A stretch of DNA of 57,955 nt, taken from positions 1 to 57,955 of IMG/VR virus record IMGVR_UViG_3300027733_000003; one strand, 5' to 3'. Positions 2,249-22,956 of this stretch are shown here, one piece after another. Every line of letters starts with the position of its first letter. The first letter of the stretch is position 1. Under the pieces are notes generated by a model. It was given only the letters and a program-made list of their open reading frames with translations, searched no databases and was not told the origin of the DNA. A program made the position numbers and the translations under genes. Source of the stretch: a virus. Its lineage: Duplodnaviria; Caudoviricetes.

Positions 2249-2511
2249 TGAATAAAGGTGGCCCTACCAAAGCAGCGTATGACAAAAAATACGAATCATC
2301 CCCTGAGCAAGTCAAGAAGCGTGAGATGCGTAACCAAGCACGTGCGGAGTTGACAAAGGCTGGCAAAGTATCCAAGGGTGACGGCAAAGATGTCGATCAC
2401 AAGAACATGCTCGATGGCAACGGAACAAACGCCAAGAGTAATCTACGTGCAATTCCAAAAGAACAAAACAGAGGCTGGAGAAAAACGAATGGCGATAAAT
2501 ACGGTTCCTAA
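2248..2511 (+). CDS. Small HNH-like protein
   Basis: DVDHKN...GTNAKSNLRAIPKEQNR. Confidence 0.7.
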   Translation: MNKGGPTKAAYDKKYESSPEQVKKREMRNQARAELTKAGKVSKGDGKDVDHKNMLDGNGTNAKSNLRAIPKEQNRGWRKTNGDKYGS

Positions 2512-2725
2512 TGTTGTTATCCAAAACAGCCCAAGAATAATTTCTTTTTTTGGGCGAGAAGTTCCAAAGGGAGTTATCCATATTGATGTGATTAACAACT
2601 TCGTAAACGACAGCAAGCTCGCTTGTTGGACGACAAAAACAGGCAACCACACAATGCCTATTGACCTAGATAATTTAGATGACAGTTTAACAGCTGTGAT
2701 CGTAACTATGAGGATGACATGTTAG
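2489..2725 (+). CDS. Hypothetical protein
   Basis: GGAG RBS before ATG 2489; fills the gap before the helicase. Confidence 0.6.
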   Translation: MAINTVPNVVIQNSPRIISFFGREVPKGVIHIDVINNFVNDSKLACWTTKTGNHTMPIDLDNLDDSLTAVIVTMRMTC

Positions 2726-4284
2726 TTAGGACTGACAAACGAGCACTGATACTAAAACTTCGTAATCCCTCTAGGGTTACTGTTCCCATACCAACTTCCA
2801 AGCTGGTAACTCACAATGGGAATACGTATGTAGCTGTCCCTCACCGGCCAGACGAAGTCAAGGTACTACGTAACCTAGGGTTTAACGCACCAGACCCTAT
2901 GAAGTATTACTACAAATTTCCGGGGAGGTTTGCGCCGTTCGATGCACAAATTGAAACTGCAAATTTTCTTTCGATGCACGATAGAGCGTTCTGCTTAAAC
3001 AGTATGGGTTTAGGTAAAACGGTAACCGCCCTATGGACGTACGACTACATGCGAGATGCAAAGATGGTCAACAAAGTCTTGGTGGTCTGTCCTCTATCCA
3101 CGATGGAAAGAACATGGGCTGACGAAGTGTTCAAGACATTTCCACACCTTGATGCAGTTGTGTTGTATGGCTCACGTGAACGAAGAAAGAAACTTCTAAA
3201 TCAAGACGCACACATCTACATAATTAACACGGATGGTTTGAAAACTATTCATGAAGATTTGAAGAACAGACCAGACATAAACCTCATCATCGTGGATGAG
3301 ATCGCCATGTTTAGAAACTCAAGCACTGATCGTTGGAAGACGCTCAATGAGATTTGTAACAAGCAGTCGCAACGACGTATCTGGGCATTGACTGGTGCGC
3401 CAACTCCGCATGAACCAACAGACGCATGGGCACAGTGCCGCATCGTGTGTCCAACGAACCCTGACGTACCCAAGTACTTCGGTAAGTTCAGAGACATGGT
3501 GATGAAGCAGATCACATCGTTCAAGTGGGTGCCAAGACCAAACGCAGTAGACATCGTCAAGCAAGTGATGCAACCCGCTGTTAGGTTTGCGTTGGATGAC
3601 TGTGTTGATCTGCCCGAACAAATAATGATGTCGCACGATGTGGAGATGACACCTGAGCAGAAGAAGGCATACAAAGCCATGCTGGAAAAACTCATGATGG
3701 AGTATGAAGGCGGCGAAGTATTGGCAGTCAACGAAGCAGTCAAGGCCAACAAGCTTGTTCAGATCGCCTGTGGCGTTGCATATGGCAAAGACGGCGAGTA
3801 CATAAACATTCCAAGCAAGCCGCGTATAGATGTACTCAAGGAAATTATTGAGTCATCTGAAGGCAAGGTACTGGTGTTTGTCCCGCTGACTGGAGTGCTT
3901 GAACACGTGGTCAGAGAACTTGAAAACGATTGGGTAGTGGCATCAATCCATGGCGGCACACCCAAGGCTGAGCGTGATGAAATCTTTGGCAAGTTCCAGT
4001 CGACAAAAGAGCCACATGTAATTGTGGCAAACCCTGCCACGATGAGCCACGGTTTAACTTTAACTGCGGCTACTACTATTGTTTGGTACGCACCCATCCA
4101 CTCAAACGATGTGTACGAACAAGCATGCGCTCGGGTTAGAAGGCCGGGGCAGACTCGCACGACAGTGATTGCTCACATTGCCGCAAGCGAGATCGAAAGA
4201 CGTATTTATTTAAGACTACAAAAGAAACAGAAGCTGCAAGGCTCACTACTGGAATTGATGAAAGGATACGACCCCGACCAGTAA
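2719..4284 (+). CDS. SNF2-family superfamily 2 helicase
   Basis: SMGLGKT, IVDE, LTGAP, HGLTLTAA, QACARVRRPGQ. Confidence 0.92.
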   Translation: MLVRTDKRALILKLRNPSRVTVPIPTSKLVTHNGNTYVAVPHRPDEVKVLRNLGFNAPDPMKYYYKFPGRFAPFDAQIETANFLSMHDRAFCLNSMGLGKTVTALWTYDYMRDAKMVNKVLVVCPLSTMERTWADEVFKTFPHLDAVVLYGSRERRKKLLNQDAHIYIINTDGLKTIHEDLKNRPDINLIIVDEIAMFRNSSTDRWKTLNEICNKQSQRRIWALTGAPTPHEPTDAWAQCRIVCPTNPDVPKYFGKFRDMVMKQITSFKWVPRPNAVDIVKQVMQPAVRFALDDCVDLPEQIMMSHDVEMTPEQKKAYKAMLEKLMMEYEGGEVLAVNEAVKANKLVQIACGVAYGKDGEYINIPSKPRIDVLKEIIESSEGKVLVFVPLTGVLEHVVRELENDWVVASIHGGTPKAERDEIFGKFQSTKEPHVIVANPATMSHGLTLTAATTIVWYAPIHSNDVYEQACARVRRPGQTRTTVIAHIAASEIERRIYLRLQKKQKLQGSLLELMKGYDPDQ

Positions 4285-9825: not shown

Positions 9826-12800
9826 TTAAATTTGACTTGCAAGTTGTACAAAACCTTTGTTTTGTTTGGTAGTTTCTACTCCGCCAATTACACCACGTTC
9901 CCGCTTCATTGCGGCCATTGGTGCTTTTAAAAGTTCGGACATAGGCAAACGTTTGTATCCATTTGACACACGGGATTCTTCCATACGTTGGAATTCTTCA
10001 CGTGCTTTAGCCATACCTTGGGCATCTCCTGCCCTGTACGCATTGACGTACTCACCCTTAATATCTGTCGACTTCTGGTGATAGAACTTGTCGTACTCAG
10101 CTTTTACGTTCTGAGTAAATTGACGATCAGTCACAGTATTCGTTGGCAAACCCACAGCTTGGAAGGCGGCATCCACCATGCCAAAGTCTTCTGGCTTAAG
10201 AACGAGGTCACCATTACGCATGGTGATACCCTCAGTAGCAAAACGACCAGCCTTCATCACATTGGCAACCCCATTGGGCATCGCCATCTCTAGGCCTTTG
10301 TAATAGTCGCCATGCAACAACATCCCAAACGCATCAGCAAACTTCATCCCCATACTTGCACTTGGCCCCATTGCTGCCACAATAATCTTCTCTGCACCAG
10401 AACGACTGGTCAAGTCACCTTGAGCAAATGGCAGGATAGAAGCCACACGACCCATACCCAGCTTGTCACTCACATCCACACCCAATGCAGCAGGCACACC
10501 TCTGAGCAGTAAGTCAGATACCACCTTGTTGTTTATCATGCGGCGCAGTTTGAACTCAAAGTCATCTGGCTCATCAGGGTCGCCAAGAATCTTGGACATC
10601 ATCCAAGCAATCTGACTCATGAATGGAACAGCCATTGCTCCACCAAGCACGGACATCTGAGCAACAATAAATCCAAGGGCTTTACGAGCCACCATCTTTT
10701 CTTCAGTCGATGCCCCCTTGAACGAGTTGTGCATTAGTCTTGCCAGCATGGACAACTGAATGATCTGGAAACGGCGGAACTGACCAACCACACGGCCTAT
10801 ACCGTTAGACAACGCACGTGGGGTGTTGAAGCCATCGTATGAACCATGAGTATCGGACACCACCTGAGCAGCGTATTGAGTGGCTGCTTCGGTATTGTTG
10901 TTGCCGTACTTCTCAAGGTATCCACGATACGCAGCAATGGCAGCTACAGAACGGTTGACCGATTCGATGCGGTTGTTCACGCCCTGCATCTTGTACATCA
11001 CCTTGGCAAAGACTCCCTTTTCATCAGCCGTGGCTCGTTCAGCAGAATCCATACTGATATCAATCTTGCCCATACCAACCAGCTTGTTGAGCATGTCACG
11101 CACATCAGCTGGGGCCTTGCTGAAGTCAATGTGTTCGTTGATACCCAGACCCTTAATCAACCCAGCGATCTCTTTGTACCCACGATTGACTTGGGATACA
11201 GCGTTGCCATACCCAATACGACCAGCCAAATATGGCACGGATATCACCGCAGTCTGAGTAATCTGTTGCAAGTAGAACGCAGGGCTGAACGTCAAGCTCC
11301 ACAGTGTGTTCATACGTGTGAGTGCAACTGACAACGGGCCGGGAGACTTGTACTCCATGCTGTTGGCTTGACGCTTTATCAACTCGTTGTAGATCGGCAT
11401 GGCTTCACGGCGATGATTTCTAGCCTCATTCCGCATACGTTCCATCGAATCTGTAATGGCGTCGTTGTGTTCCAGCGAAGACAGGAAGTGAGCATCAGCC
11501 CGACCACTTGTGGCCAAGTTACGCATCATGTTGTCATCAGCACCAGACACATTTTTACGCTGCATTTCTGATTTACGGGCGCTGGCTTCAGCCACGGTCA
11601 TCAAGTACAAGTCCCCAACCATCTTGTTCATGGAGTGGAAGTTCACAGATGACATGTCGCCATCACTGACTTGACGCTGTAGCAGATTACGCAGACGACC
11701 AACAGCCAGATGGATATCTCCGCCACCAGTGTAGGATTCTTCAGCTTCTTTCACACCAGCATCTTCTGGCATGATGTCGTACTTGCCTGTGGCGTGCAGC
11801 TTCTCAGCAATGTTGTCAGCTTCGGCTTGTGTTTCAGCGAACTGAACCACGTAGTGATCAGAGTTGGAAACATTGTCTTGCAGCCATTGCTTGGCTTGTT
11901 CTACATCCCAGTCACCCAGCTTGGCACGTTCTTCATAGTGCTTGAACTCGGCAGACTTGGCCACAACCACATGGTCACCATAGCGGCCAAGGTAGGCATA
12001 GGGGGACGAAACATCCACACCACGTACTTTGGCTTCACGGGCAAGTAACAGTTTCTTTTCCGCAGCCAGTTCTTTCATTTGCTCTGCGTCGCCCATAACG
12101 GCTTTTTCACGGTCAGCAAACTCACGGTCAATTGCAGCTTCCACAGCTTTCTTCTTGAGCATCAGGGCTTCATAGCCATGCTCAAACACTGCCTTGATTA
12201 CTTTCTGGGCTGACTCATCAAAGGCATCAAACCGCAGTTTCATGTCTGGGTCGACAGTAAACAAATCAGTGCCAACACGATGTTCGCCGGGGTAGTAGCC
12301 CCACTTGCCACTAACTGTGGAGTCCTTGATGAACTTGTTGACTGAGTTGGCTCCAGTGCCTTTGTACTCGCCAGACAGCTTGTCAAAGTCAGACAGAATT
12401 TTATTGATGCGCTGTTCAAACTGGATGCGTGTAGCTTGCCGTGCGTACTGTGCATTCAGATAGTCATTGGCAGACTTCATGTATTTGGAAGCCATCTTCA
12501 CCACATCTTCTGTGATGGCAGATGCGTAGATACCGTTCTTGGCTTGATGCAACAGGTTGGTTACCAGACTGCGCGTAGGAGTACGCACAAATGGCGGCAG
12601 TCGATTTATTGTTTCATCGACTGTAGCGGCAGGGTTGATACCAAACTTAACCTTTTCTTTTGATGCACTGACATTGGTTTGTAGGGTAACAATATTTTTG
12701 TCATTGAAAACTACGTAGTTAAAACTACCATCGTTTGCAACCGCATCAGCGTATTGAACACCCTTTATTCCGGCTTTATCGAGCATAGCCGCAAATTTTT

Positions 12801-15800
12801 TAGGGCCGTATGCTTTCTCTTGTTCTTTAAACCACTTAATGGATATATTTCCATTTTGGTCATACAACCCTAAACTTTCAAGCCCTTTGCGCACTACATC
12901 GCTTTGCGCATTCATGGGTTGTTTTGCCTTCAGCCACTCGTCAGATGCAACACCAAGACTGGTGCGATAAAGAACAGCTTTAGCCCCCACTGGGGAATCC
13001 CCGTCAATAGCAGCATACCCTTCAGCAGTTGGCTTAGCTTGGGCAAAATACGATCCCTGACCCCACAGCTGCCCTCCAACGCCAGTGCCTATTTTTGTAG
13101 TTGAAAATTGTCTAAACAATACGTTTGAACCATGCCATGTACCAGCAATTTCTAAACGGGCAGCACCGTAAGCCATGTTGACCACGTCTTGTGCAGTCAA
13201 AGATTCTGGTTTAAAGCCAAGTTTACGGACGGCGTTCTTAAAGCCAGCCCACAATGTACGGAACCAGCTACCAAAAGCTCCAGTCATCTTGGCAGCAGCA
13301 TTTGGATCAACACCCGCCAACATAGCTTCTTCAACAAAATATGCAATCAACTCAGACATCACGTCTTCATCAGCTACATTGGCGTTGCCAACACGTTCAA
13401 CGGCTTTACGTGCTAGCGTAGATTCTTTGGAATTGTCATTGAGGTCAGCCCACTTACTAATTTGGCCAGCCAAAGAAACAATATCTTTTTCTGCAAGCAT
13501 CCGGTCAAGTCCAAGGTGGCCACCTACTTCGTGCATAAACTTGGCACGTCCCTGACCTTCTTGGATACGGCTTGCAACTAGAATAGCTTTGCCACTTCGT
13601 GTCCAACCAAAGGCTTTATCGTTTGACCATCCAATAGCTTGGTCACGCATATCTTCAAGCTCAGCTACATCATCAACGATGATCACATTGCGGCCAAGAG
13701 TGTCAACACGCATGAATGCTTTGAGTTCAGCAATCAAGGACTTGGCAGTGTATGGTTTTGCAGGTGCGGTGCTTTTGCCAAACTGCGCTGATTCCAACCC
13801 CACAGGCATAGTTACACCCTTCATCATAGAAGAAGGGGCATACTTCAAAAGATTTGATGCTTGTTTTGTATTACCGTTTCGGTTTGCTACTGCATCTGTT
13901 AATACGTAAGAAGGAAAAGATCCTTCTGGGTCTATCGTGGCTTGAATAACTATTTGAAAGATAGACTGTCGAAGTGAAGTGCTTCTTTCATATAGACGCA
14001 ACGTGTCCATATCTTTATCAGCAACAGCTTGAAGCGCAAGTTTTTCATTTCTTGTGAGTGGGGCATATTCTGTATGTAGTAAACGTGCTTTTGTCAATTC
14101 CTGCTGCGCTTGCTGCCTTACTTCTTTGGGTTCTTTGTTCCGCAATAGGTTTTCTTGACCTTCTGGACGTCCTTTAAAAGCATCCCACAAACCTTGGCTT
14201 ACCAACTCAAAAGTTTTGGTTACTTTACCATTTACGATCAAGTCCAATGTTCTACCGTTTTCTTTTAGGTATGGTTCCTCATTGTGTGTTTCATTGTCTA
14301 TGTTCTTACCAAACTTAACATCTTCTTCCCGACCAACCACTGATACCTTAGAAGTTGTGGCTTGTCCGCCTTTTTGAGCAGGGGTGGTTGTTGTGACTGT
14401 CTCTGTCTTTGGCGTGAACGGTGTACGAGTCAACTCGTCTTTGTTGGCCTTGTTCTGGGCAGTCGCTCCAGTCAGAAACTCACCGACCAGTTCTTGTTTG
14501 TCAGGAACGATGAACAGCGCAGCGCCGTCCATCTGTTGGAGGTTGTTGGCTACCAGCGAACCGTACGTGGCTTTGTCGACGTTGATACAACCGAACGAGT
14601 AGCGGGAATCTGCTGCGCCTTCTTTCTGCAATGCAGCCAGCCGTTGCTGGGCATCTTTCTCTTTTGTCCACACAGAGTGGAACAGGGTTACGCTGTACTC
14701 GCCGTCAATCGCCTTGTCCAGAACGAACACCTTACCAAAATCATACCCACCAGCTGTATGAGCTTCACCGCCACCACGCTTAGCATCTCGCAAGCCCATA
14801 GTGAACAGGCCAGCAGGTGTGATGCGATTCTGAACTTTGTCAGTGTTGCCCTTGTAGTAATCCCCAACGGTCTTACCAATCAGGACTTTCTTTTGCAAGA
14901 ACAAAGAACCATCAGGGTTAAATATAAATACCCGTGCGTTTGGCTTGTCAGTCAGTACAAAGAACTTGTTCTCTGCTTTGAGCTTGGCAGCGATGCTTGG
15001 GTAGATCGTGCTGTAGGCTTCTTGCGCAGCCTTGGACATGTTGGCCTTAGCCACTGCTGGAACTTCTGCTTTGACTTCCCTCACTTGGGAAACAGTACGT
15101 GGAGCGATAACCACAACTTCACTGTTCTTCGTCATGAGCGATGGGTTAAAGACCATAGCCGTGGCCAACACGCCAGCGTGAATTGCCTTAATGATGTCGC
15201 GGATGGCGGCAGCAACTGCCTGAGCGCCCTTGGTAGCGTAAGCTGTTACATCTTCTTGCAGCTTGGTAAAGAACTCTGACGTTCCACGTGTTTCACCATA
15301 GTGGTTTTCCAGTCGCGCAATCTGTGCTTCTGGTAACGCAGCAATAGGTTCTTCCAGAATTGTCTGTTGCTCAGGGTTTATTTCAGCAGCCTCTGGGCTT
15401 TCCTCAATGATTTCTTCAGCGGTCAGTTCTTCTTCAGCTACTGGTTCAGTCTGTTCTTCAACTACAGGCTCAGTCTGTTCTTCAGCAACAACATCACTTA
15501 TTGTTTGTCGCTTTTCGGTGGCGATTTCGGTGGCAGGAGCCGTGACAATTTGGTTGACAACAGCTGCAAGGTTGGCTTTACCACGGTTTGCCAAGTCGTC
15601 AAAACGAATCCTTTGATCTTTGTTAAGGTCTGCGTAAGCAGGAAGTTCAGGCGCGAGAGTACGTAGTTCATTCCATTGCTCCTCTGGGGTTTTTACTTCT
15701 TCTGGGACGACTTCTGTTTTGGCTTGCTTAGTTTGTTTGGCAGGCTTTTCGGGTTTGGCGTTTCCTTCGCCCACCGTTTTGCCACTTCTGGCTGGTTTGC

Positions 15801-18800
15801 GAACATTTCCCTCATCTGCGCTTTCGACTTGAACGGCATTTGTTTTCTCCAATTTTGCTGATGCTACAGATAAAGTTTTTGTAAGTCCATTTTGGAATTT
15901 CACAGTAACAGTAGTTTCTGCGCCATCACCAGAAAAACTTTCAATAACACCAGTTCCCAGTTTGGGATTGACTACAGTGTTTCCAACCTCTAATCCTTTG
16001 CGGTCGGCCTTGCGTTTTGTACGAGTTTCGGCAACCAGCTTATCTCGCTTTGTTTGCTCAGCGACGTCAACTTCTGGTTTTGCTTCTGCTTCTACTTTTG
16101 TAGTTTCACCTGTTAAATCAACTTCTTCCTCTTCTTCATAGGCAACACTCTTTTCACCTTTGGCGGCTCTTTCTTTTTGCAACGCAGAATAAGTATTCCA
16201 AGCCTTGGCTAAGTCTGCCGCAGCTTTTGCGTCAGCTGGATTAGCATTTACTTTGGCTTGTAGTTTGTCAATACGGTTTAGTATGACTTTACCTTCAGAG
16301 TCAACAGCCCCTTGGCTTCCGCCCGCTTTTGCAATGGTGCCCATAGTGCGGTCTTCGCCGCCTTCACCACGGTTCATCTCCTCGGCCAATAATTTGCTAC
16401 GGTCGCCTTCTTGCTCACCAGCTTCAAGTTCTTCAGCCAATGTTTGAGATTTGTTGGTCTCATACTCTGAACGAGTGGCGTACAACCCAGCTAACTCACC
16501 CTCACCAATACCGTCAGGGAATTCCGCAGAACGGAAGTTGGCAGCTTCTGTCACCATCTGCAAAGCAATTGCAGGATCAGTCACAACATATTGACCAATT
16601 TTTCTGTCCATCTTGACGCCCATACGCTCAAGTTGTTTTTGAACAGCAGCTTCTGACATGCCCACCAAATCAGCAATGTCTTTTTCCTTGAACTGTTCCA
16701 ACAAAGACAACCGCAAAATTTCAGTGCGGGTCTCAGCATTAGCACCCTTTACGGAAGCCAGTATCTTTCCAAACAACTCACGAATGATCTCTATGCGGCG
16801 TTCGCTTGAGATGTGGGAGAGGTCTGAGGCGTAGTATCCGATGGTTGGGCTGTAGACTCTTGGGCCGTTTTGAACAGCTTGCTCACCCACAGCGCCTGTG
16901 GCGGTTTGTTGAGGTTGATTGGGTACTTGCCCTTCACCCAACCCACTTGTGGCTTGTTCATTTACTTGCCCCGGCTGCTGACTACCAGAAAGGTCGGTGG
17001 CGACACCGGTGCCAGTCCGTATTCCTTCTCCTGATGGCTGTCCAGTTTGCTGGCCAGTCTGTCCTTGAGGCTCACTTCCTGTAAGGAGGGATTGAACTCC
17101 GCTGGGTTGTACATCCCCAGTGTTTGCCCCGCTACCTTCTCCTGTTCCGCTTTGGATTGGTACTGTTCCCAGCCCGGAAGTTGTTTGCAATGTTTGTCCA
17201 TTTTTAGCTCCTTTGGTTTGTTGCGATGCGGTGTAGCCGCTGGTATCCTTGCCTGTCAAGGCTTGGTGGATGGCGTTAAGCTGCTCAAGCTGCGCACCCT
17301 TAGTGCTTTGAGACAACTGTTCTAAGATTTGTGCGGCTTCTTCCACAGAACCCACGTGGGCAATTTGGAATTTGGCAGCGACTTCAGCTACCTTTTCAAA
17401 AGTCTTACGGACAGAGTCCGTGGCTTTCAGTGGATTAAAATTTACGTTGACCAGCTTGCCGCCGGTCTGTTCATTGGCTACGTTTATAGCGCGGGTAATT
17501 TGGTTCTGAAAACCTTTTAACGACCCAACTAGATCAGCAGTGGCTTTGGCGGCTTCTTGAATTGCTGGGCCAAATACAGGCTTACCAAAGAAGTCCCAAC
17601 GTTGCCCCTCAGGTTTTGGCAAACCTACTCGGTCTGCCATGTAGCTTACACGTTCAGTTTCTTTTTGTTGTTGCTGTGTTGCAAAATCTGCTTGTGTTTG
17701 TTGTTGGTTTTGTTGTTGAGTAGCAGCTTGCGATTGAGCAATATCTGTAGTTCCGCCTGTTACAGCTGGAGCCGTGATAGGTGCAGCGGTTTGATCGACC
17801 AGTGAAGAACGACCAGCCAGTGGGTTAACTCTGTCAGCAGTGCCGCTCATCTGAGCAGCCATGTCAAACTCAGGAGTTGTACCTGCCTGAGTACCAACCA
17901 AAGAAGAACGGCCTGTCAGCGGATCAACCCTACCAGCAGTACCACTCATCTGAGCGGCCATGTCAAATCCGGGGGTTGTACCCACTGGGGTGATTGTTGG
18001 GTTCTGCTGGAACGCTTGTTCAACCTCATTGGTAGCTGTTTGGCCAGTCTGTGGATTGGCAGCTGTATTCGCTCCGGGAACAAAACTTTCACTACGTCTC
18101 CAACCACCTGCACCACCACCGATAAGCCCGCCAAGTGTGGCTCCACCGATAAACGATTCTTTGAACCGCTCGTTGGATTTCTCGTTGAAGAACTGTTCTG
18201 TGGGGTCGACCGCCATGCGGCCCGCTTGGTTTACAAATTCTTGTGATGTCTCTTGAGCGCCTTCTTTGACAGCCGCTGTTGTTCCAGTAGCAGCAGTTCG
18301 CGCCAATGCACCTTTGGCTCCTGATACGTTGTCAAGCAAGTTCAGTGGGTTACGGAAAAGCTGCCCACGGCCTAAAGCACCTTCAAGGCCCACCACATTC
18401 AAGGCAGCGTAGGGAACACCTAACGCAAACGCAGAAGCTGCATCAGTCGTGCCTGATTGTTCACGTTGGTTGGACAGCACATCGCCCACAGAGGATGGAT
18501 AAGACGCAGCGACTACACCAGCATCAGAACCAAGGGACAACGATTTTTGAGCAACCTCAGCTGCTTTTTTGGCTTTTGCTGCTGCAACTACATCACCTGA
18601 AGCTTGTGCTGCCCTATATGCAGTAGTGGCTTCTTCTAAAGCAAGGCGAGTACCGCCCATAGCCAATCGACCACCAATACCGCCAACCAAGGCTTCAGCA
18701 AGATATGGGGCAGACTGAATGGCTAAACCTTTTGCGTAGCTACCAAAATCCCCTACACCTTGAACATCCGCAAATGTATCAATAGCGCCCAGTTTTCTGG

Positions 18801-19110
18801 CTTTTTGCGCAGATATATCAGCACGTAGTTCATTCTCAGATCGCTGTTTAGCAAGCCAACTGCTTGTATCTTTTGCGCCAACCGCACCTGCAACTTCTTC
18901 GGCTACGCCATACAACCCAGCTTGATAGCGATCAACAGACGCAGATGCTTGTTGTCCTGTAATACCGCTATTGGAAGCACCAAACCGCAGTTTGGCAGCA
19001 ACTTCTTTTTCGTCCCAACCCAAAGTCTTTGAGACTTCTTGGACAATGTCGTAATCAGACATCTTGTCCCCACCGGGGATCAGGGCGCGGAACTGATTAA
19101 TCGTTGGCAT
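9826..19110 (-). CDS. Giant internal virion/DNA ejection polyprotein (T7 gp16-like position), multi-domain
   Basis: 3094-aa ORF last in the GNAT + three-gene block; contains HTH, Tudor-like, YkuD-like (H...SFGCINV), HEVGGH and ART-like (WHGS...GSYFA) segments and a helical hydrophobic C-terminus. Confidence 0.85.
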   Translation of the reverse strand: MPTINQFRALIPGGDKMSDYDIVQEVSKTLGWDEKEVAAKLRFGASNSGITGQQASASVDRYQAGLYGVAEEVAGAVGAKDTSSWLAKQRSENELRADISAQKARKLGAIDTFADVQGVGDFGSYAKGLAIQSAPYLAEALVGGIGGRLAMGGTRLALEEATTAYRAAQASGDVVAAAKAKKAAEVAQKSLSLGSDAGVVAASYPSSVGDVLSNQREQSGTTDAASAFALGVPYAALNVVGLEGALGRGQLFRNPLNLLDNVSGAKGALARTAATGTTAAVKEGAQETSQEFVNQAGRMAVDPTEQFFNEKSNERFKESFIGGATLGGLIGGGAGGWRRSESFVPGANTAANPQTGQTATNEVEQAFQQNPTITPVGTTPGFDMAAQMSGTAGRVDPLTGRSSLVGTQAGTTPEFDMAAQMSGTADRVNPLAGRSSLVDQTAAPITAPAVTGGTTDIAQSQAATQQQNQQQTQADFATQQQQKETERVSYMADRVGLPKPEGQRWDFFGKPVFGPAIQEAAKATADLVGSLKGFQNQITRAINVANEQTGGKLVNVNFNPLKATDSVRKTFEKVAEVAAKFQIAHVGSVEEAAQILEQLSQSTKGAQLEQLNAIHQALTGKDTSGYTASQQTKGAKNGQTLQTTSGLGTVPIQSGTGEGSGANTGDVQPSGVQSLLTGSEPQGQTGQQTGQPSGEGIRTGTGVATDLSGSQQPGQVNEQATSGLGEGQVPNQPQQTATGAVGEQAVQNGPRVYSPTIGYYASDLSHISSERRIEIIRELFGKILASVKGANAETRTEILRLSLLEQFKEKDIADLVGMSEAAVQKQLERMGVKMDRKIGQYVVTDPAIALQMVTEAANFRSAEFPDGIGEGELAGLYATRSEYETNKSQTLAEELEAGEQEGDRSKLLAEEMNRGEGGEDRTMGTIAKAGGSQGAVDSEGKVILNRIDKLQAKVNANPADAKAAADLAKAWNTYSALQKERAAKGEKSVAYEEEEEVDLTGETTKVEAEAKPEVDVAEQTKRDKLVAETRTKRKADRKGLEVGNTVVNPKLGTGVIESFSGDGAETTVTVKFQNGLTKTLSVASAKLEKTNAVQVESADEGNVRKPARSGKTVGEGNAKPEKPAKQTKQAKTEVVPEEVKTPEEQWNELRTLAPELPAYADLNKDQRIRFDDLANRGKANLAAVVNQIVTAPATEIATEKRQTISDVVAEEQTEPVVEEQTEPVAEEELTAEEIIEESPEAAEINPEQQTILEEPIAALPEAQIARLENHYGETRGTSEFFTKLQEDVTAYATKGAQAVAAAIRDIIKAIHAGVLATAMVFNPSLMTKNSEVVVIAPRTVSQVREVKAEVPAVAKANMSKAAQEAYSTIYPSIAAKLKAENKFFVLTDKPNARVFIFNPDGSLFLQKKVLIGKTVGDYYKGNTDKVQNRITPAGLFTMGLRDAKRGGGEAHTAGGYDFGKVFVLDKAIDGEYSVTLFHSVWTKEKDAQQRLAALQKEGAADSRYSFGCINVDKATYGSLVANNLQQMDGAALFIVPDKQELVGEFLTGATAQNKANKDELTRTPFTPKTETVTTTTPAQKGGQATTSKVSVVGREEDVKFGKNIDNETHNEEPYLKENGRTLDLIVNGKVTKTFELVSQGLWDAFKGRPEGQENLLRNKEPKEVRQQAQQELTKARLLHTEYAPLTRNEKLALQAVADKDMDTLRLYERSTSLRQSIFQIVIQATIDPEGSFPSYVLTDAVANRNGNTKQASNLLKYAPSSMMKGVTMPVGLESAQFGKSTAPAKPYTAKSLIAELKAFMRVDTLGRNVIIVDDVAELEDMRDQAIGWSNDKAFGWTRSGKAILVASRIQEGQGRAKFMHEVGGHLGLDRMLAEKDIVSLAGQISKWADLNDNSKESTLARKAVERVGNANVADEDVMSELIAYFVEEAMLAGVDPNAAAKMTGAFGSWFRTLWAGFKNAVRKLGFKPESLTAQDVVNMAYGAARLEIAGTWHGSNVLFRQFSTTKIGTGVGGQLWGQGSYFAQAKPTAEGYAAIDGDSPVGAKAVLYRTSLGVASDEWLKAKQPMNAQSDVVRKGLESLGLYDQNGNISIKWFKEQEKAYGPKKFAAMLDKAGIKGVQYADAVANDGSFNYVVFNDKNIVTLQTNVSASKEKVKFGINPAATVDETINRLPPFVRTPTRSLVTNLLHQAKNGIYASAITEDVVKMASKYMKSANDYLNAQYARQATRIQFEQRINKILSDFDKLSGEYKGTGANSVNKFIKDSTVSGKWGYYPGEHRVGTDLFTVDPDMKLRFDAFDESAQKVIKAVFEHGYEALMLKKKAVEAAIDREFADREKAVMGDAEQMKELAAEKKLLLAREAKVRGVDVSSPYAYLGRYGDHVVVAKSAEFKHYEERAKLGDWDVEQAKQWLQDNVSNSDHYVVQFAETQAEADNIAEKLHATGKYDIMPEDAGVKEAEESYTGGGDIHLAVGRLRNLLQRQVSDGDMSSVNFHSMNKMVGDLYLMTVAEASARKSEMQRKNVSGADDNMMRNLATSGRADAHFLSSLEHNDAITDSMERMRNEARNHRREAMPIYNELIKRQANSMEYKSPGPLSVALTRMNTLWSLTFSPAFYLQQITQTAVISVPYLAGRIGYGNAVSQVNRGYKEIAGLIKGLGINEHIDFSKAPADVRDMLNKLVGMGKIDISMDSAERATADEKGVFAKVMYKMQGVNNRIESVNRSVAAIAAYRGYLEKYGNNNTEAATQYAAQVVSDTHGSYDGFNTPRALSNGIGRVVGQFRRFQIIQLSMLARLMHNSFKGASTEEKMVARKALGFIVAQMSVLGGAMAVPFMSQIAWMMSKILGDPDEPDDFEFKLRRMINNKVVSDLLLRGVPAALGVDVSDKLGMGRVASILPFAQGDLTSRSGAEKIIVAAMGPSASMGMKFADAFGMLLHGDYYKGLEMAMPNGVANVMKAGRFATEGITMRNGDLVLKPEDFGMVDAAFQAVGLPTNTVTDRQFTQNVKAEYDKFYHQKSTDIKGEYVNAYRAGDAQGMAKAREEFQRMEESRVSNGYKRLPMSELLKAPMAAMKRERGVIGGVETTKQNKGFVQLASQI
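15693..15839 (-). CDS. Nested +1-frame small basic protein MPFKSKAQMREMFANQPEVAKRWAKETP... (48 aa)
   Basis: TGGAG RBS 7 nt before ATG; resembles the MPFKSxAQ...PExAKRWxKETP small-protein family I recall as free-standing phage late genes. Confidence 0.7.
   Translation of the reverse strand: MPFKSKAQMREMFANQPEVAKRWAKETPNPKSLPNKLSKPKQKSSQKK
16791..16961 (-). CDS. Nested +1-frame ORF MNKPQVGWVKGKYPINLNKPP... (56 aa)
   Basis: ATG immediately follows the TAA of the nested 79-aa ORF (TAAATG). Confidence 0.45.
   Translation of the reverse strand: MNKPQVGWVKGKYPINLNKPPQALWVSKLFKTAQESTAQPSDTTPQTSPTSQANAA
16962..17201 (-). CDS. Nested +1-frame ORF MDKHCKQLPGWEQY... (79 aa)
   Basis: AAAGGAG RBS 6 nt before ATG; host frame is low-complexity G/Q/T/S here. 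Confidence 0.55.
   Translation of the reverse strand: MDKHCKQLPGWEQYQSKAEQEKVAGQTLGMYNPAEFNPSLQEVSLKDRLASKLDSHQEKEYGLAPVSPPTFLVVSSRGK
17800..17985 (-). repeat. Two tandem 33-aa (99-bp) repeats in the giant protein
   Basis: GTTPxFDMAAQMSGTAxRVxPLxGRSSLV twice. Confidence 0.85.
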
Positions 19111-21417: not shown

Positions 21418-22540
21418 GATTCAGTACCTTTCCATAATCAACCATTTTGTAGCCATTGCTACCAATAAGAACGGCGTCAGGAATAACTTTTTCAACATCA
21501 TGAGCCATAACACCAATTTGAAAACCATGCCCAGCTTCACCACGAAACTCTGGTTTGTATTGGAATGAATACAGCAAAAGCCCATTCCCCAACTGACCAA
21601 TCTTGGTGATATCTTGTTTGATGCGGATGTCTGAATATTTTGTAATAGCTGCTGATCCAGCTTGGCCAATCAGCGAACCAAACCCACTCATACCAGCGCC
21701 TTCAGCTTGTTGTTGTGCTTGATACGCGCCAACGTCGGCTTGGTATTTTTGAACACCCAGAGTACCAACTTGACCCCAGCCGCCCATAGCAGTCTGTGTA
21801 GCGGCGTTACTTACGCCACTTATAGCAGCGGCATTACCCACCATGTTTTGACCAGCAGCAGCACCTTGGCTATTAGCACCCAGACCAACATTGGTCTGAT
21901 TCAAAGACTGAGCAGGTAAGCCCGCGTACATGTTGTACACGTTAGCTTGTTTCTGAAGACCAACTTGTTTGGCGGCTTCCCGTGTCTGATTCATCGCAGC
22001 AGCAGTTGCCGCAGCTTGGGCAACTTGATTTGAGTTAGCTTGTCCTTGTGCTACACCAGATGTCGGGTCAATACCATAAGACCGTTGGCGCATGGCCGTC
22101 TGTTCACGTTGAACTTGTGCTGCTGTTCCAATATCGCCTGCGGCTTGTGAGGCCAGTTGTTCTTGATATGCCTCTTCGTTATATTTATTTGCGTCGTCCC
22201 GCAATTTCTCCATGGCAGGAATACCTGATTCCTTGTACATGGCATAAGACTCATCCGCCCGTGTTAAATTTTTCTTGGCAGCTTCTTGGGTAACATCATA
22301 AGTACCTTGAAGGCGTGCGTTTTGAGCTTCGGTCTGCTTTAGTAAGTCAGGATAAATTTTGGTTTTAAATTCAGCCCACTGCTCAGTAGCCAACTTGGAT
22401 AACTCGCGTTGAGCAATACCAATATTAGGGTCTGCATCTGGAGCAGAACTACCGCCTTTACCCCACAGAGTTGAAAGACGACCTTTGGCGGTTGGCTTAA
22501 ACGCCAACTCAGGCAACATCTCAAAATCGTGCATCTTCAT
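21407..22540 (-). CDS. Putative ejection/pilot protein with C-terminal Peptidase_S74-like chaperone domain
   Basis: GKGGSSAP start, Gln/Ala/Gly-rich body, [10 protein letters not shown]...[15 protein letters not shown]...VDY. Confidence 0.75.
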
Positions 22541-22956
22541 ACGTACCCCTTAATCCATCTGCATTCTTCACGCAGCATCCCATAGATAAACATATCGGAG
22601 CCATCAACATGGGCACGGCGCAAAAGACCTTCACGTTTGTACCCGATATCTTCTACAAATTTGTTTGACACGTTGTTGTCCACTTTCACAAGAGCCGTGA
22701 CTCGGTAACATCTCAGTTGAAGGAACGGATACGCAAACGAGCGAAACAAGAACTCACGGTTCAACCAGTTTTTTCCGGGAGCTGCAACAACATTCATACT
22801 GATTGAAGCACCAGTGTACATATTGAACACAACCCCCGCAATCAATTCTCCGTCTCGTTCAAGACCAATTGCTTCACCGCCGCTATCTTCTTCCCCCAGC
22901 TGTTCCCAGACCCATTTTGATATCTTTTCTTTCTGTCCATAAACAACTGTCTTCAT
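22537..22956 (-). CDS. GNAT-fold acetyltransferase-like protein (T7 gp13/DUF2824-like)
   Basis: YPFLQLRCYRVTALV...NNVS...GYKREGLLR...YGML. Confidence 0.8.
   Translation of the reverse strand: MKTVVYGQKEKISKWVWEQLGEEDSGGEAIGLERDGELIAGVVFNMYTGASISMNVVAAPGKNWLNREFLFRSFAYPFLQLRCYRVTALVKVDNNVSNKFVEDIGYKREGLLRRAHVDGSDMFIYGMLREECRWIKGYV

Follow-up and report, generated by a model that had tools for sequence, protein, structure and literature searches.

Three small genes probably nested in the +1 frame of a giant ejection-type gene of a tailed phage

Fully nested out-of-frame genes are, to our knowledge, textbook rarities in tailed dsDNA phages, the standard example being lambda Rz1. Rz1 is a small gene contained entirely within Rz on the same strand and in the +1 frame; it has a ribosome-binding site of its own, and its conservation extends across phages. 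Its product is a lipoprotein with signal sequence and lipobox, which partners with the product of the host gene in lysis. Overprinted genes are also found in tiny ssDNA and ssRNA genomes under size pressure (E in D and B in A of phiX174; L of MS2). Small virion proteins encoded next to the portal gene are exemplified by gp6.7 and gp7.3 of T7. Those parts of the literature that our search covered contained general works only on nested or overprinted phage genes.

The window (the whole stretch of phage DNA analysed, 57,955 nt) carries on its minus strand a giant gene (9826..19110; ORF list and translation) for a virion/ejection-type protein of 3094 aa. It is the final gene of an internal-virion-protein block, with genes for an internal virion protein, an acetyltransferase, and an ejection-like protein upstream, and C-terminal residues 2492-3049 of its product show similarity to families of giant phage proteins (phrog_10089, E 9.7e-51, and others). 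The first-pass annotation of this DNA had claimed three same-strand ORFs in the +1 frame of the giant gene, and these were reproduced by ORF list and translation. Nested gene 1 (16962..17201, minus strand) encodes 79 aa (pI 6.7) across host codons 637-717, nested gene 2 (16791..16961, minus strand) 56 aa (pI 9.9) across host codons 717-774, and nested gene 3 (15693..15839, minus strand), a member of the small basic MPFKSKAQ protein family (phrog_1375; see below), 48 aa (pI 10.6) across host codons 1091-1140. Measured from the first nucleotide of the giant gene, their starts are offset by 1909, 2149, and 3271 nt, so that all three fall in frame +1.

The start signals claimed for these ORFs could likewise all be read in the sequence. 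The Shine-Dalgarno (SD) motif AAAGGAG (17208..17214, minus strand) stands 6 nt ahead of the ATG of nested gene 1, the TAA of which (16964-16962) abuts the ATG of nested gene 2 (16961), and the SD-like TGGAG (15847..15851, minus strand) stands 7 nt ahead of the ATG of nested gene 3. An SD-like motif at −16 to −5 precedes 4 of the 100 out-of-frame ATGs of the giant gene, the starts of the 79-aa and 48-aa ORFs being two of these. Host codon mapping and Pfam also agree with the earlier statement that the ORFs cover low-complexity linkers and lie beside a helix-turn-helix (HTH) and a Tudor domain without overlapping them: the host-frame sequence over all three is rich in G/Q/T/S/P/E/K. The HTH, resembling Sigma-70 region 4 (Sigma70_r4_2-type, PF08281; host residues 796-829, 16624..16725, minus strand), scored E 3.1e-4 in a scan of the whole protein and 26.1 bits against a cut-off of 25.7 bits when the segment was rescanned. 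The Tudor-like stretch (15856..15987, minus strand), which stops just short of nested gene 3, resembles PF21196 (PcrA_UvrD_tudor) at E 0.0041 and 17.4 bits, under the 23.9-bit cut-off, and in an alignment of 14 loci only the window and its closest relative have it.

We consider it likely (probability roughly 0.85, from comparison of sequences) that two linker regions of the giant late gene code in both frames, and that the mRNA of this gene also carries three small +1 cistrons which would be initiated internally. Translation of the 79-aa cistron would begin at AAAGGAG-N6-ATG and that of the 48-aa cistron at TGGAG-N7-ATG. The abutment of the 56-aa ATG on the 79-aa stop codon suggests that the 56-aa cistron is started by termination-reinitiation coupling at the TAA-ATG junction.

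The first-pass annotation had placed the 48-aa product in a small basic protein family otherwise found as free-standing phage late genes, and this assignment was borne out. The protein of the window matches phrog_1375 (E 1.8e-4, 22.8 bits), as do 32 of the 48 aligned family members that were scanned (best E 2.2e-10); its 51 called homologues measure between 37 and 68 aa, and free-standing copies are found in head/packaging modules. In a survey of viral contigs, tblastn confirmed 463 of 599 stretches carrying the pattern, and the best 80 of these 463 loci were analysed. Among them, 39 copies were free-standing, 23 were nested in ORFs of at least 1,000 aa, five were nested in an ORF of ∼405–413 aa, and 10 formed the N-terminal module of proteins of 108–379 aa; three had no match to the motif used. 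Nested copies invariably occupied the +1 frame of their host gene, which was either a giant virion gene of one of two phage groups or the ∼405-aa gene, an acidic one located between portal and capsid-type genes. The same arrangement was found in the GenBank records of a Podoviridae phage (MW202828) and of a Flavobacterium phage (MT497078, the one examined for frame and annotation among 68 Flavobacterium-phage records with a match); in neither of these two records is the nested ORF annotated. ORF, start, and stop of the 48-aa gene are kept in 25 nested loci (23 viral loci and the two GenBank phages).

Pfam family DUF3008 (PF11450) is a small protein of phages and bacteria with an N-terminal motif resembling that of the 48-aa family; none of 48 family members matched PF11450 at E values up to 0.1. 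The nearest named neighbour in the Atlas was a cluster with DUF3008 in 15% of its members (score 0.86), which is a lead only. The N-terminal 8-mer of the family had no match in the literature searched.

The +1 segments could also be reached by programmed ribosomal frameshifting, which would yield truncated isoforms of the giant protein rather than independent small proteins. Such a route would profit from the fact that the +1 frame of some loci stays open well 5′ of the conserved methionine, for example for 124 codons in one locus (L004) and over a stretch of 141 codons in three others (L009, L012, and L013). However, in most loci the +1 frame is closed by a stop codon 6–11 codons before the conserved ATG of the 48-aa ORF, the ATG is preceded by an SD motif, and free-standing family members start at the very same Met-Pro-Phe, so that frameshifting is highly improbable. 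The start signals track the hosts: relatives from the clade of the window carry GGAG, GAAGGAG, GGGGA, or GGTGAGG ahead of the same ATG, and leaders in the Flavobacterium-type clade are rich in A and lack SD motifs.

A homologue of the 79-aa ORF was present in 51 of 52 related loci, always nested in the +1 frame of a giant ORF. AGGA or GGAG preceded the chosen ATG in all 52 rows, a count that is biased because ATGs with an SD motif were favoured in the choice. The family alignment (A2) contains 18 invariant residues, and over the same DNA tblastn identities were higher in the +1 frame than in the host frame (75 vs 55%, 73 vs 35%, and 54 vs 37%). No free-standing relative of this family was found among the loci and homologues searched, none of the 25 members scanned matched a PHROG family (best E 0.057), and the 79-aa protein of the window had no match in Pfam. 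Its predicted structure is poor (pLDDT 62.6); in the alignment, family members have N-terminal cysteine residues and no hydrophobic leader. For the 56-aa protein, no called homologue was found. ORFs related to it (type 1) comprise 10 distinct sequences, their best block being 63% identical in amino acids in the nested frame vs 65% in the host frame, and at its position other loci contain unrelated ORFs or none.

The first-pass annotation had proposed to align homologous giant genes and look for depressed synonymous variation in the host frame. Codon-position variability was found to be shifted in the manner of +1 coding, and this shift was confined to the nested intervals. Across 14 loci, host codon positions 1/2/3 varied at about 0.5/0.45/0.65 in the flanks of the 48-aa overlap, and at 0.15–0.41/0.05–0.22/0.01–0.12 within it. 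Host position 1 is therefore the most variable inside the overlap, which means that the third codon position of the nested frame is the freest. A second phage clade (11 loci) was shifted in the same direction over the 48-aa ORF, and in 41 distinct sequences of the 79-aa ORF nested positions 1/2/3 varied at 0.363/0.284/0.443. When the giant gene was scanned in 12 loci, host position 1 was the most variable in seven of 130 scored 20-column windows, all seven at host residues 633–717 or 1095–1134; the HTH displayed the normal host-frame pattern, and the 56-aa interval was not flagged. In the nine loci carrying type 1, the 18 highest of 174 ratios of position 1 to position 3 all touched the three ORFs. 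Within the 56-aa ORF, this ratio was 1.61 (host codons 719–745) and 1.39 (728–754), compared with a maximum of 0.98 and a median of 0.76 in 142 host-only windows. As the loci are related sequences and not independent, these position statistics overstate the sample size. Comparison across loci shows purifying selection on the proteins of the 48-aa and 79-aa frames and, within its own subclade, on that of the 56-aa frame. The 56-aa ORF is the weakest case of the three, with a +1 coding signature that appears clearly only among these nine loci.

The same variability data bear on the notion that what is conserved in these islands is nucleic acid, for instance an RNA structure or a regulatory site in the giant mRNA, with the open +1 frames as a by-product. 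Overall variability falls sharply in the 48-aa island, as would be expected of any constrained element, but it does so with a period of three and with nested position 3 freest, while ATG, stop, and SD are all kept. Moreover, free-standing genes encode the same peptide without a match at the DNA level (positions 15400-17400 of the window yielded no match when compared by blastn with a phage collection), which leaves this notion highly improbable as well.

The lengths of the three ORFs alone are within chance. Shuffling the synonymous codons of the giant gene 500 times gave, on average, 4.72 ATG-initiated +1 ORFs of 48 aa or more, against six in the real sequence; 328 of the 500 shuffled genes contained one of 79 aa or more, and the three spans were free of +1-frame stops in 12%, 43%, and 43% of the shuffled genes. 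The case for coding is therefore based on conservation in other genomes and not on ORF length. Given such shuffles, with equally many and equally long +1 ORFs, the three ORFs might be regarded as chance open frames in low-complexity linkers, coding for nothing. Yet ORFs, starts, and protein sequences are kept down to about 47–57% identity in dozens of loci, the codon-position shift is restricted to the nested intervals, and the 48-aa protein has free-standing homologues. A chance origin is hardly credible overall, and for the 48-aa and 79-aa ORFs it is refuted by the codon-position data and conservation across loci.

Dual coding by the linkers is also argued for from the side of the host frame. 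When nested codons were redrawn synonymously, the host frame remained open with a mean probability of 0.004 for the 79-aa ORF and 0.001 for the 48-aa ORF; although redrawing would thus interrupt it in about 99.6–99.9% of cases, not one copy has it closed (it is open in 41 of 41 and 22 of 22 distinct sequences of the nested ORFs, respectively), which indicates that both frames are under selection and that the linkers are truly dual-coding. That the giant ORF is not one gene but shorter genes split by ordinary small ones, its continuous frame being accidental, is hardly credible either, since the low-complexity, by-product-like host translation across the nested genes is outweighed by this openness and by normal coding patterns in the host-frame domains on both sides.

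The first-pass annotation had regarded the linkers as a nested mini-operon, either overprinted or formed by extension of the giant gene through existing genes. The +1 coding signature, found for all three ORFs, upholds the first part. As free-standing relatives exist (39 of the best 80 of 463 loci, from the homologue search that had been suggested), the likelier route for the 48-aa gene is capture, and it would most likely have become nested when a structural gene extended through it. For the 79-aa gene, of which no such relative was found, overprinting de novo is possible, and the 79-aa/56-aa pair may have originated in this way. A more general reading, which we put forward tentatively and regard as unlikely, is that giant virion genes grow by reading through small neighbours that are kept alive in another frame. 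The MPFKSKAQ gene would then have been swallowed at least twice, once in the giant ejection-protein genes and once in the acidic ∼405-aa gene, the 79-/56-aa pair would have arisen de novo in a linker, and disordered linkers would serve as both nurseries and shelters. If that were true, fully nested out-of-frame genes would be a regular, systematically unannotated feature of the structural modules of tailed phages.

As to function, the 48-aa family protein is predicted by AlphaFold2 to form helices at residues 6–15 and 17–26 (mean pLDDT 85–92 over residues 1–20), suggesting a hairpin of two helices at the N-terminus and, after it, a disordered lysine-rich tail. Nine of the 10 free-standing or mid-size-host loci examined have a terminase or portal gene no more than about 3 kb away, and because free-standing relatives adjoin such genes, the protein is probably a small one associated with the head or internal to the virion. 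By the same token of gene neighbourhood, the 79-aa and 56-aa proteins probably form an accessory pair in this module for ejection or assembly. Our best guess is that all nested products are small proteins of the virion or of head assembly that are co-expressed with the ejection protein. These assignments are drawn from gene neighbourhood, and the family copy of Streptomyces phage FlowerPower lies next to a holin gene instead.

The locus thus combines up to three nested genes within a single gene; dozens of uncultured phages conserve them, and one of the three is present in cultured Flavobacterium phages too. The nested genes represent a class of small phage proteins missed by standard gene callers and reference annotations, and the linker sequence of some giant virion proteins may be dictated by another gene and not by the protein itself. 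With one family in free-standing, fused, and nested states, a natural series is available for the origin of overlapping genes and the sharing of DNA by two proteins. Compared with phrog_1375, the 48-aa protein shares size and basic character, but the member examined in an annotated reference phage, gp48 of FlowerPower, is an ordinary free-standing gene, whereas the copy of the window is nested. The small T7 proteins gp6.7 and gp7.3 are also encoded in the head module beside the portal, and by this analogy of gene position the nested products would be candidate head-internal or ejected components. An Rz1-type o-spanin was rejected for the three nested proteins, which have hydrophilic N-termini without a hydrophobic leader, as judged from the translations. 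The arrangement resembles lambda Rz/Rz1 in that a same-strand +1 gene with its own ribosome-binding signal is nested and conserved in relatives; here, however, the host is a giant virion protein, and there are three nested cistrons instead of one. As in phiX174 and MS2, overprinting is out of frame with both frames functional, but the genome is that of a dsDNA tailed phage of roughly 58 kb, and the overlap is located in the linkers of a 9.3-kb gene.

The minus-strand ORF 19110..9826, which encodes a 3094-aa virion/ejection-type protein (the giant gene; its reading frame is the host frame), holds three smaller ORFs on the same strand, as ORF listing and translation confirmed. P3 (17201-16962, −; 79 aa) starts 1909 nt into the giant gene and overlaps host codons 637-717, P4 (16961-16791, −; 56 aa) starts 2149 nt into it (host codons 717-774), and P2 (15839-15693, −; 48 aa) starts 3271 nt into it (host codons 1091-1140). 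These offsets place all three in frame +1, as the first-pass annotation had claimed. The start signals it had named were all found in the sequence: AAAGGAG 6 nt upstream of the P3 ATG, the P3 TAA directly abutting the P4 ATG, and TGGAG 7 nt upstream of the P2 ATG. Across the three spans, the host frame reads as a linker rich in G/Q/T/S/P/E/K. As had also been described, this linker adjoins a Sigma-70 region-4-type HTH (Pfam) and a Tudor-like stretch (PF21196; E 0.0041, under the Pfam cut-off), both in the host frame.

Within the single sequence, the nested ORFs do not exceed chance. The giant gene has six ATG-initiated +1-frame ORFs of ≥48 aa; 500 synonymous-codon shuffles gave a mean of 4.72, and 328 of them contained an ORF of ≥79 aa. 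The start signals are less common: of the 100 out-of-frame ATGs of the giant gene, 4 are preceded by an SD-like motif at −16..−5, while among the window's long ORFs the start has one in 17 of 32. Two of the 4 belong to P3 and P2; the other two out-of-frame ATGs lie elsewhere in the giant gene (9826-19110, −), in which conservation scans flagged no interval besides the nested ORFs.

Conservation in related phages, by contrast, goes beyond chance. When codons are compared among them, nested position 3 coincides with host position 1. Fourteen loci of the window's clade were aligned codon by codon in the host frame. Variability at host positions 1/2/3 was about 0.5, about 0.45 and about 0.65 in the flanks of the P2 overlap, and 0.15-0.41, 0.05-0.22 and 0.01-0.12 within it, that is, host position 1 became the most variable. 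The P2 overlap shifted in the same direction in a second, Flavobacterium-type clade (11 loci), and a shift of this kind marks purifying selection on a +1-frame protein. The P2 start signals also track the presumed hosts: phages of the window's clade carry GGAG-type motifs upstream of the ATG, and those of the Flavobacterium-type clade have an A-rich leader without SD. Bacteroidota largely do without SD.

When the whole giant gene was scanned in 12 loci (130 windows scored, each 20 alignment columns wide; thinly aligned stretches, notably host residues ∼1240-1781, were omitted), host position 1 was most variable in 7 windows, all at host residues 633-717 (P3) or 1095-1134 (P2). All other scored windows showed the usual position-3 maximum, and P4 was not flagged. 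The best block of P4 was similarly conserved in both frames (63% identity in the nested frame vs 65% in the host frame), and because the 12-locus scan had missed this ORF, its analysis was limited to the nine loci containing its type. In these (174 windows of 27 codons each), the top 18 position 1/position 3 ratios all touched P3, P4 or P2, and among the 142 host-only windows the median was 0.76 and the highest value 0.98. Two P4 windows (host codons 719-745 and 728-754) stood above this, at 1.61 and 1.39; P4 is therefore probably coding within this subclade. No called protein was found as a candidate homologue of P4. Other loci have either no ORF or an unrelated small one just downstream of P3; at least three further types of small +1-frame ORF, again unrelated, occur there, several common to more than one locus (type 2 in L099, L100, L111 and L134; type 3 in L102 and L109; type 4 in L105, L006 and L010).

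For P3, tblastn against the fetched loci gave a higher identity in the +1 frame than in the host frame of the same DNA: 75% vs 55% in L009, 73% vs 35% in L011 and 54% vs 37% in L015. Forty-two called homologues (51-108 aa) were found, and an alignment of 25 of them contained 18 invariant residues. A second scan of viral contigs yielded 52 P3 loci, 51 of which contained the motif (the remaining locus starts within the ORF), and in all 51 a long ORF (555-2118 aa, a length bounded by the available DNA) carried P3 in its +1 frame. AGGA/GGAG preceded the selected P3 ATG in all rows, a count biased by the preference given to ATGs with the motif, and the stop was TAA in 49 of 50 complete copies. Among 41 distinct sequences, variability at nested positions 1/2/3 was 0.363/0.284/0.443. 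A profile search of 1.84 billion protein representatives returned 11 clusters only (55-99 aa) and no distant or larger relatives; neither tblastn against 50,697 GenBank phage records nor PHROG gave a match to P3, and an Atlas search gave no usable one. Relatives outside the nested arrangement were thus found in none of the profile search, GenBank phages and PHROG. As the copies found are exclusively nested, an origin of P3 by de novo overprinting is possible.

One rival reading is that the giant ORF is itself an artefact, either of read-through across small genes or of a split host gene. It is countered by the host frame: when the nested peptides were held fixed and their codons redrawn synonymously, the mean chance of an open host frame was 0.004 for P3 and 0.001 for P2. 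All 41 distinct P3 copies had an open host frame, as did every motif copy. For P2 the count was 22 of 22, in a set of distinct copies chosen for being nested; another 53 motif copies, not being nested, fell outside this set. Such openness, far beyond the redraw odds, indicates that the P2 and P3 stretches are genuinely dual-coding, as judged from the compared sequences. The chance-ORF reading, with which the shuffles of the single sequence agree, was likewise rejected, as were an RNA element and a frameshift isoform. Spanin identity was dismissed; no lipoprotein signal is seen in any of the three translated peptides. We thus regard P2 and P3 as real nested genes with a probability of roughly 0.9 on this comparative evidence; the same reading of P4 is favoured, with distinctly less assurance. 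The proposal that the linkers double as nested genes is therefore supported by +1-frame selection and by the host frame being kept open; the frame is conserved under such selection at P2 and P3, and P4 gave a signal only in the nine-locus subclade.

P2 belongs to a family of small basic proteins that the first-pass annotation had described as otherwise free-standing in phages, and this family proved real and large. P2 itself matched phrog_1375 (E 1.8e-4) and no Pfam family. In the protein collection, 51 of 54 candidates were relatives at E ≤0.01 (37-68 aa), with an invariant N-terminus, two conserved helices and a Lys-rich tail in common; 32 of 48 matched phrog_1375 (best E 2.2e-10). In IMG/VR contigs, tblastn confirmed 463 of 599 pattern stretches. 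Among the best 80 of these 463 loci, 39 were free-standing genes of <100 aa; nested copies numbered 23 in ORFs of ≥1000 aa and 5 in an ORF of ∼405-413 aa, 10 copies made up the N-terminal part of proteins (108-379 aa) whose tails are of low complexity, and 3 were missed by the search motif. All nested copies lay in the host's +1 frame, without exception. Unannotated +1-frame nested homologues were also present in the GenBank Podoviridae isolate MW202828 and in Flavobacterium phage elemoE_10-3D, the one examined among 68 matching Flavobacterium-phage records; gp48 of Streptomyces phage FlowerPower is a free-standing relative.

The ∼405-413-aa ORF (L045:2481-3722, L051, L053, L055, L057:9298-10515) is very acidic and contains the P2 family in the +1 frame at host codon ∼52-59; its host-frame read-out there (DAVQEQS...) is similar to that of Flavobacterium-type giant genes. 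In L057 its neighbours are a portal gene on one side and a virion structural gene on the other, which makes it scaffold-like by position. The fused module (∼35 residues) is N-terminal in proteins of L023:10001-10663, L026, L065:9926-11065, L060, L072, L083, L027, L047 and L074, the remainders of which are Gly-rich, His/Lys-rich or otherwise of low complexity, suggesting a portable N-terminal module. The free-standing copies L022:3713-3865 and L034:5748-5897 are overlapped on the other strand by long ORFs (403 and 284 aa, counted from the earliest possible start); these ORFs have probably been called too long, in an intergenic region between divergent genes.

The family tree (42 columns, 57 rows) is mostly without resolution. 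The copies nested in the ∼405-aa host clustered with free-standing ones (98/92 support), which implies at least two transitions between states, and a single origin of the giant-nested state may be compatible with the tree. Given the free-standing and fused relatives, the likelier route for P2 is that a structural gene, as it lengthened, captured a gene that already existed.

The window is a podovirus-like genome, its nearest cultured capsid relative being Rhizobium phage RHph_TM3_14A (43.5% identity). The block closed by the giant gene includes an internal virion protein, an acetyltransferase, an ejection-like protein and a 764-aa protein without a PHROG match; terminase, portal, capsid and tail-fibre genes lie elsewhere on the same strand. 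An acyl-CoA N-acyltransferase gene within this internal-virion/ejection block (22537-22956, −; phrog_4470, E 5.6e-42) is surrounded by the same gene order in MW202828. The giant protein contains an HExxH-type motif, a weak YkuD (L,D-transpeptidase) match at residues 1384-1513 (E 0.027), and ∼560 C-terminal residues (2492-3049; phrog_10089, E 9.7e-51) in common with giant phage proteins that carry a DarB-like antirestriction label.

Of 10 examined loci with free-standing or mid-size-host P2 relatives, 9 have a terminase or portal gene within ∼3 kb, and some of the relatives directly follow such a gene. An AlphaFold2 model of P2 consists of a confident two-helix hairpin (residues 6-26) and a disordered basic tail. 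These features and a pI of 10.6 favour, if weakly, a small head-associated or internal virion protein that would be co-produced with the ejection protein; the FlowerPower copy, which adjoins the holin, counts against a head-associated role. Foldseek of the model against BFVD returned uncharacterised family members only, none at E ≤0.001, and Pfam gave no meaningful match for the P2, P3 or P4 peptides. P3 (pI 6.7) has a conserved C-terminus, hydrophobic then basic; its model was of low confidence (pLDDT 62.6) and left out of the fold search. The pI of P4 is 9.9.

A blastn-type DNA search of the P2-P4 region against GenBank phages gave no match, and the N-terminal 8-mer of the P2 family was absent from the searched literature. 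The accessible portions of the literature on nested and overprinted phage genes, general works only, do not describe the arrangement. Embedded and overprinted genes as such are classical, namely the lambda Rz/Rz1 pair and those of phiX174 and MS2, and the nesting in the giant gene works alike. It differs from these systems in that the host gene encodes a giant virion protein, that three cistrons are nested, that their products lack a lipoprotein signal, and that one nested family, P2, covers the free, fused and nested states.
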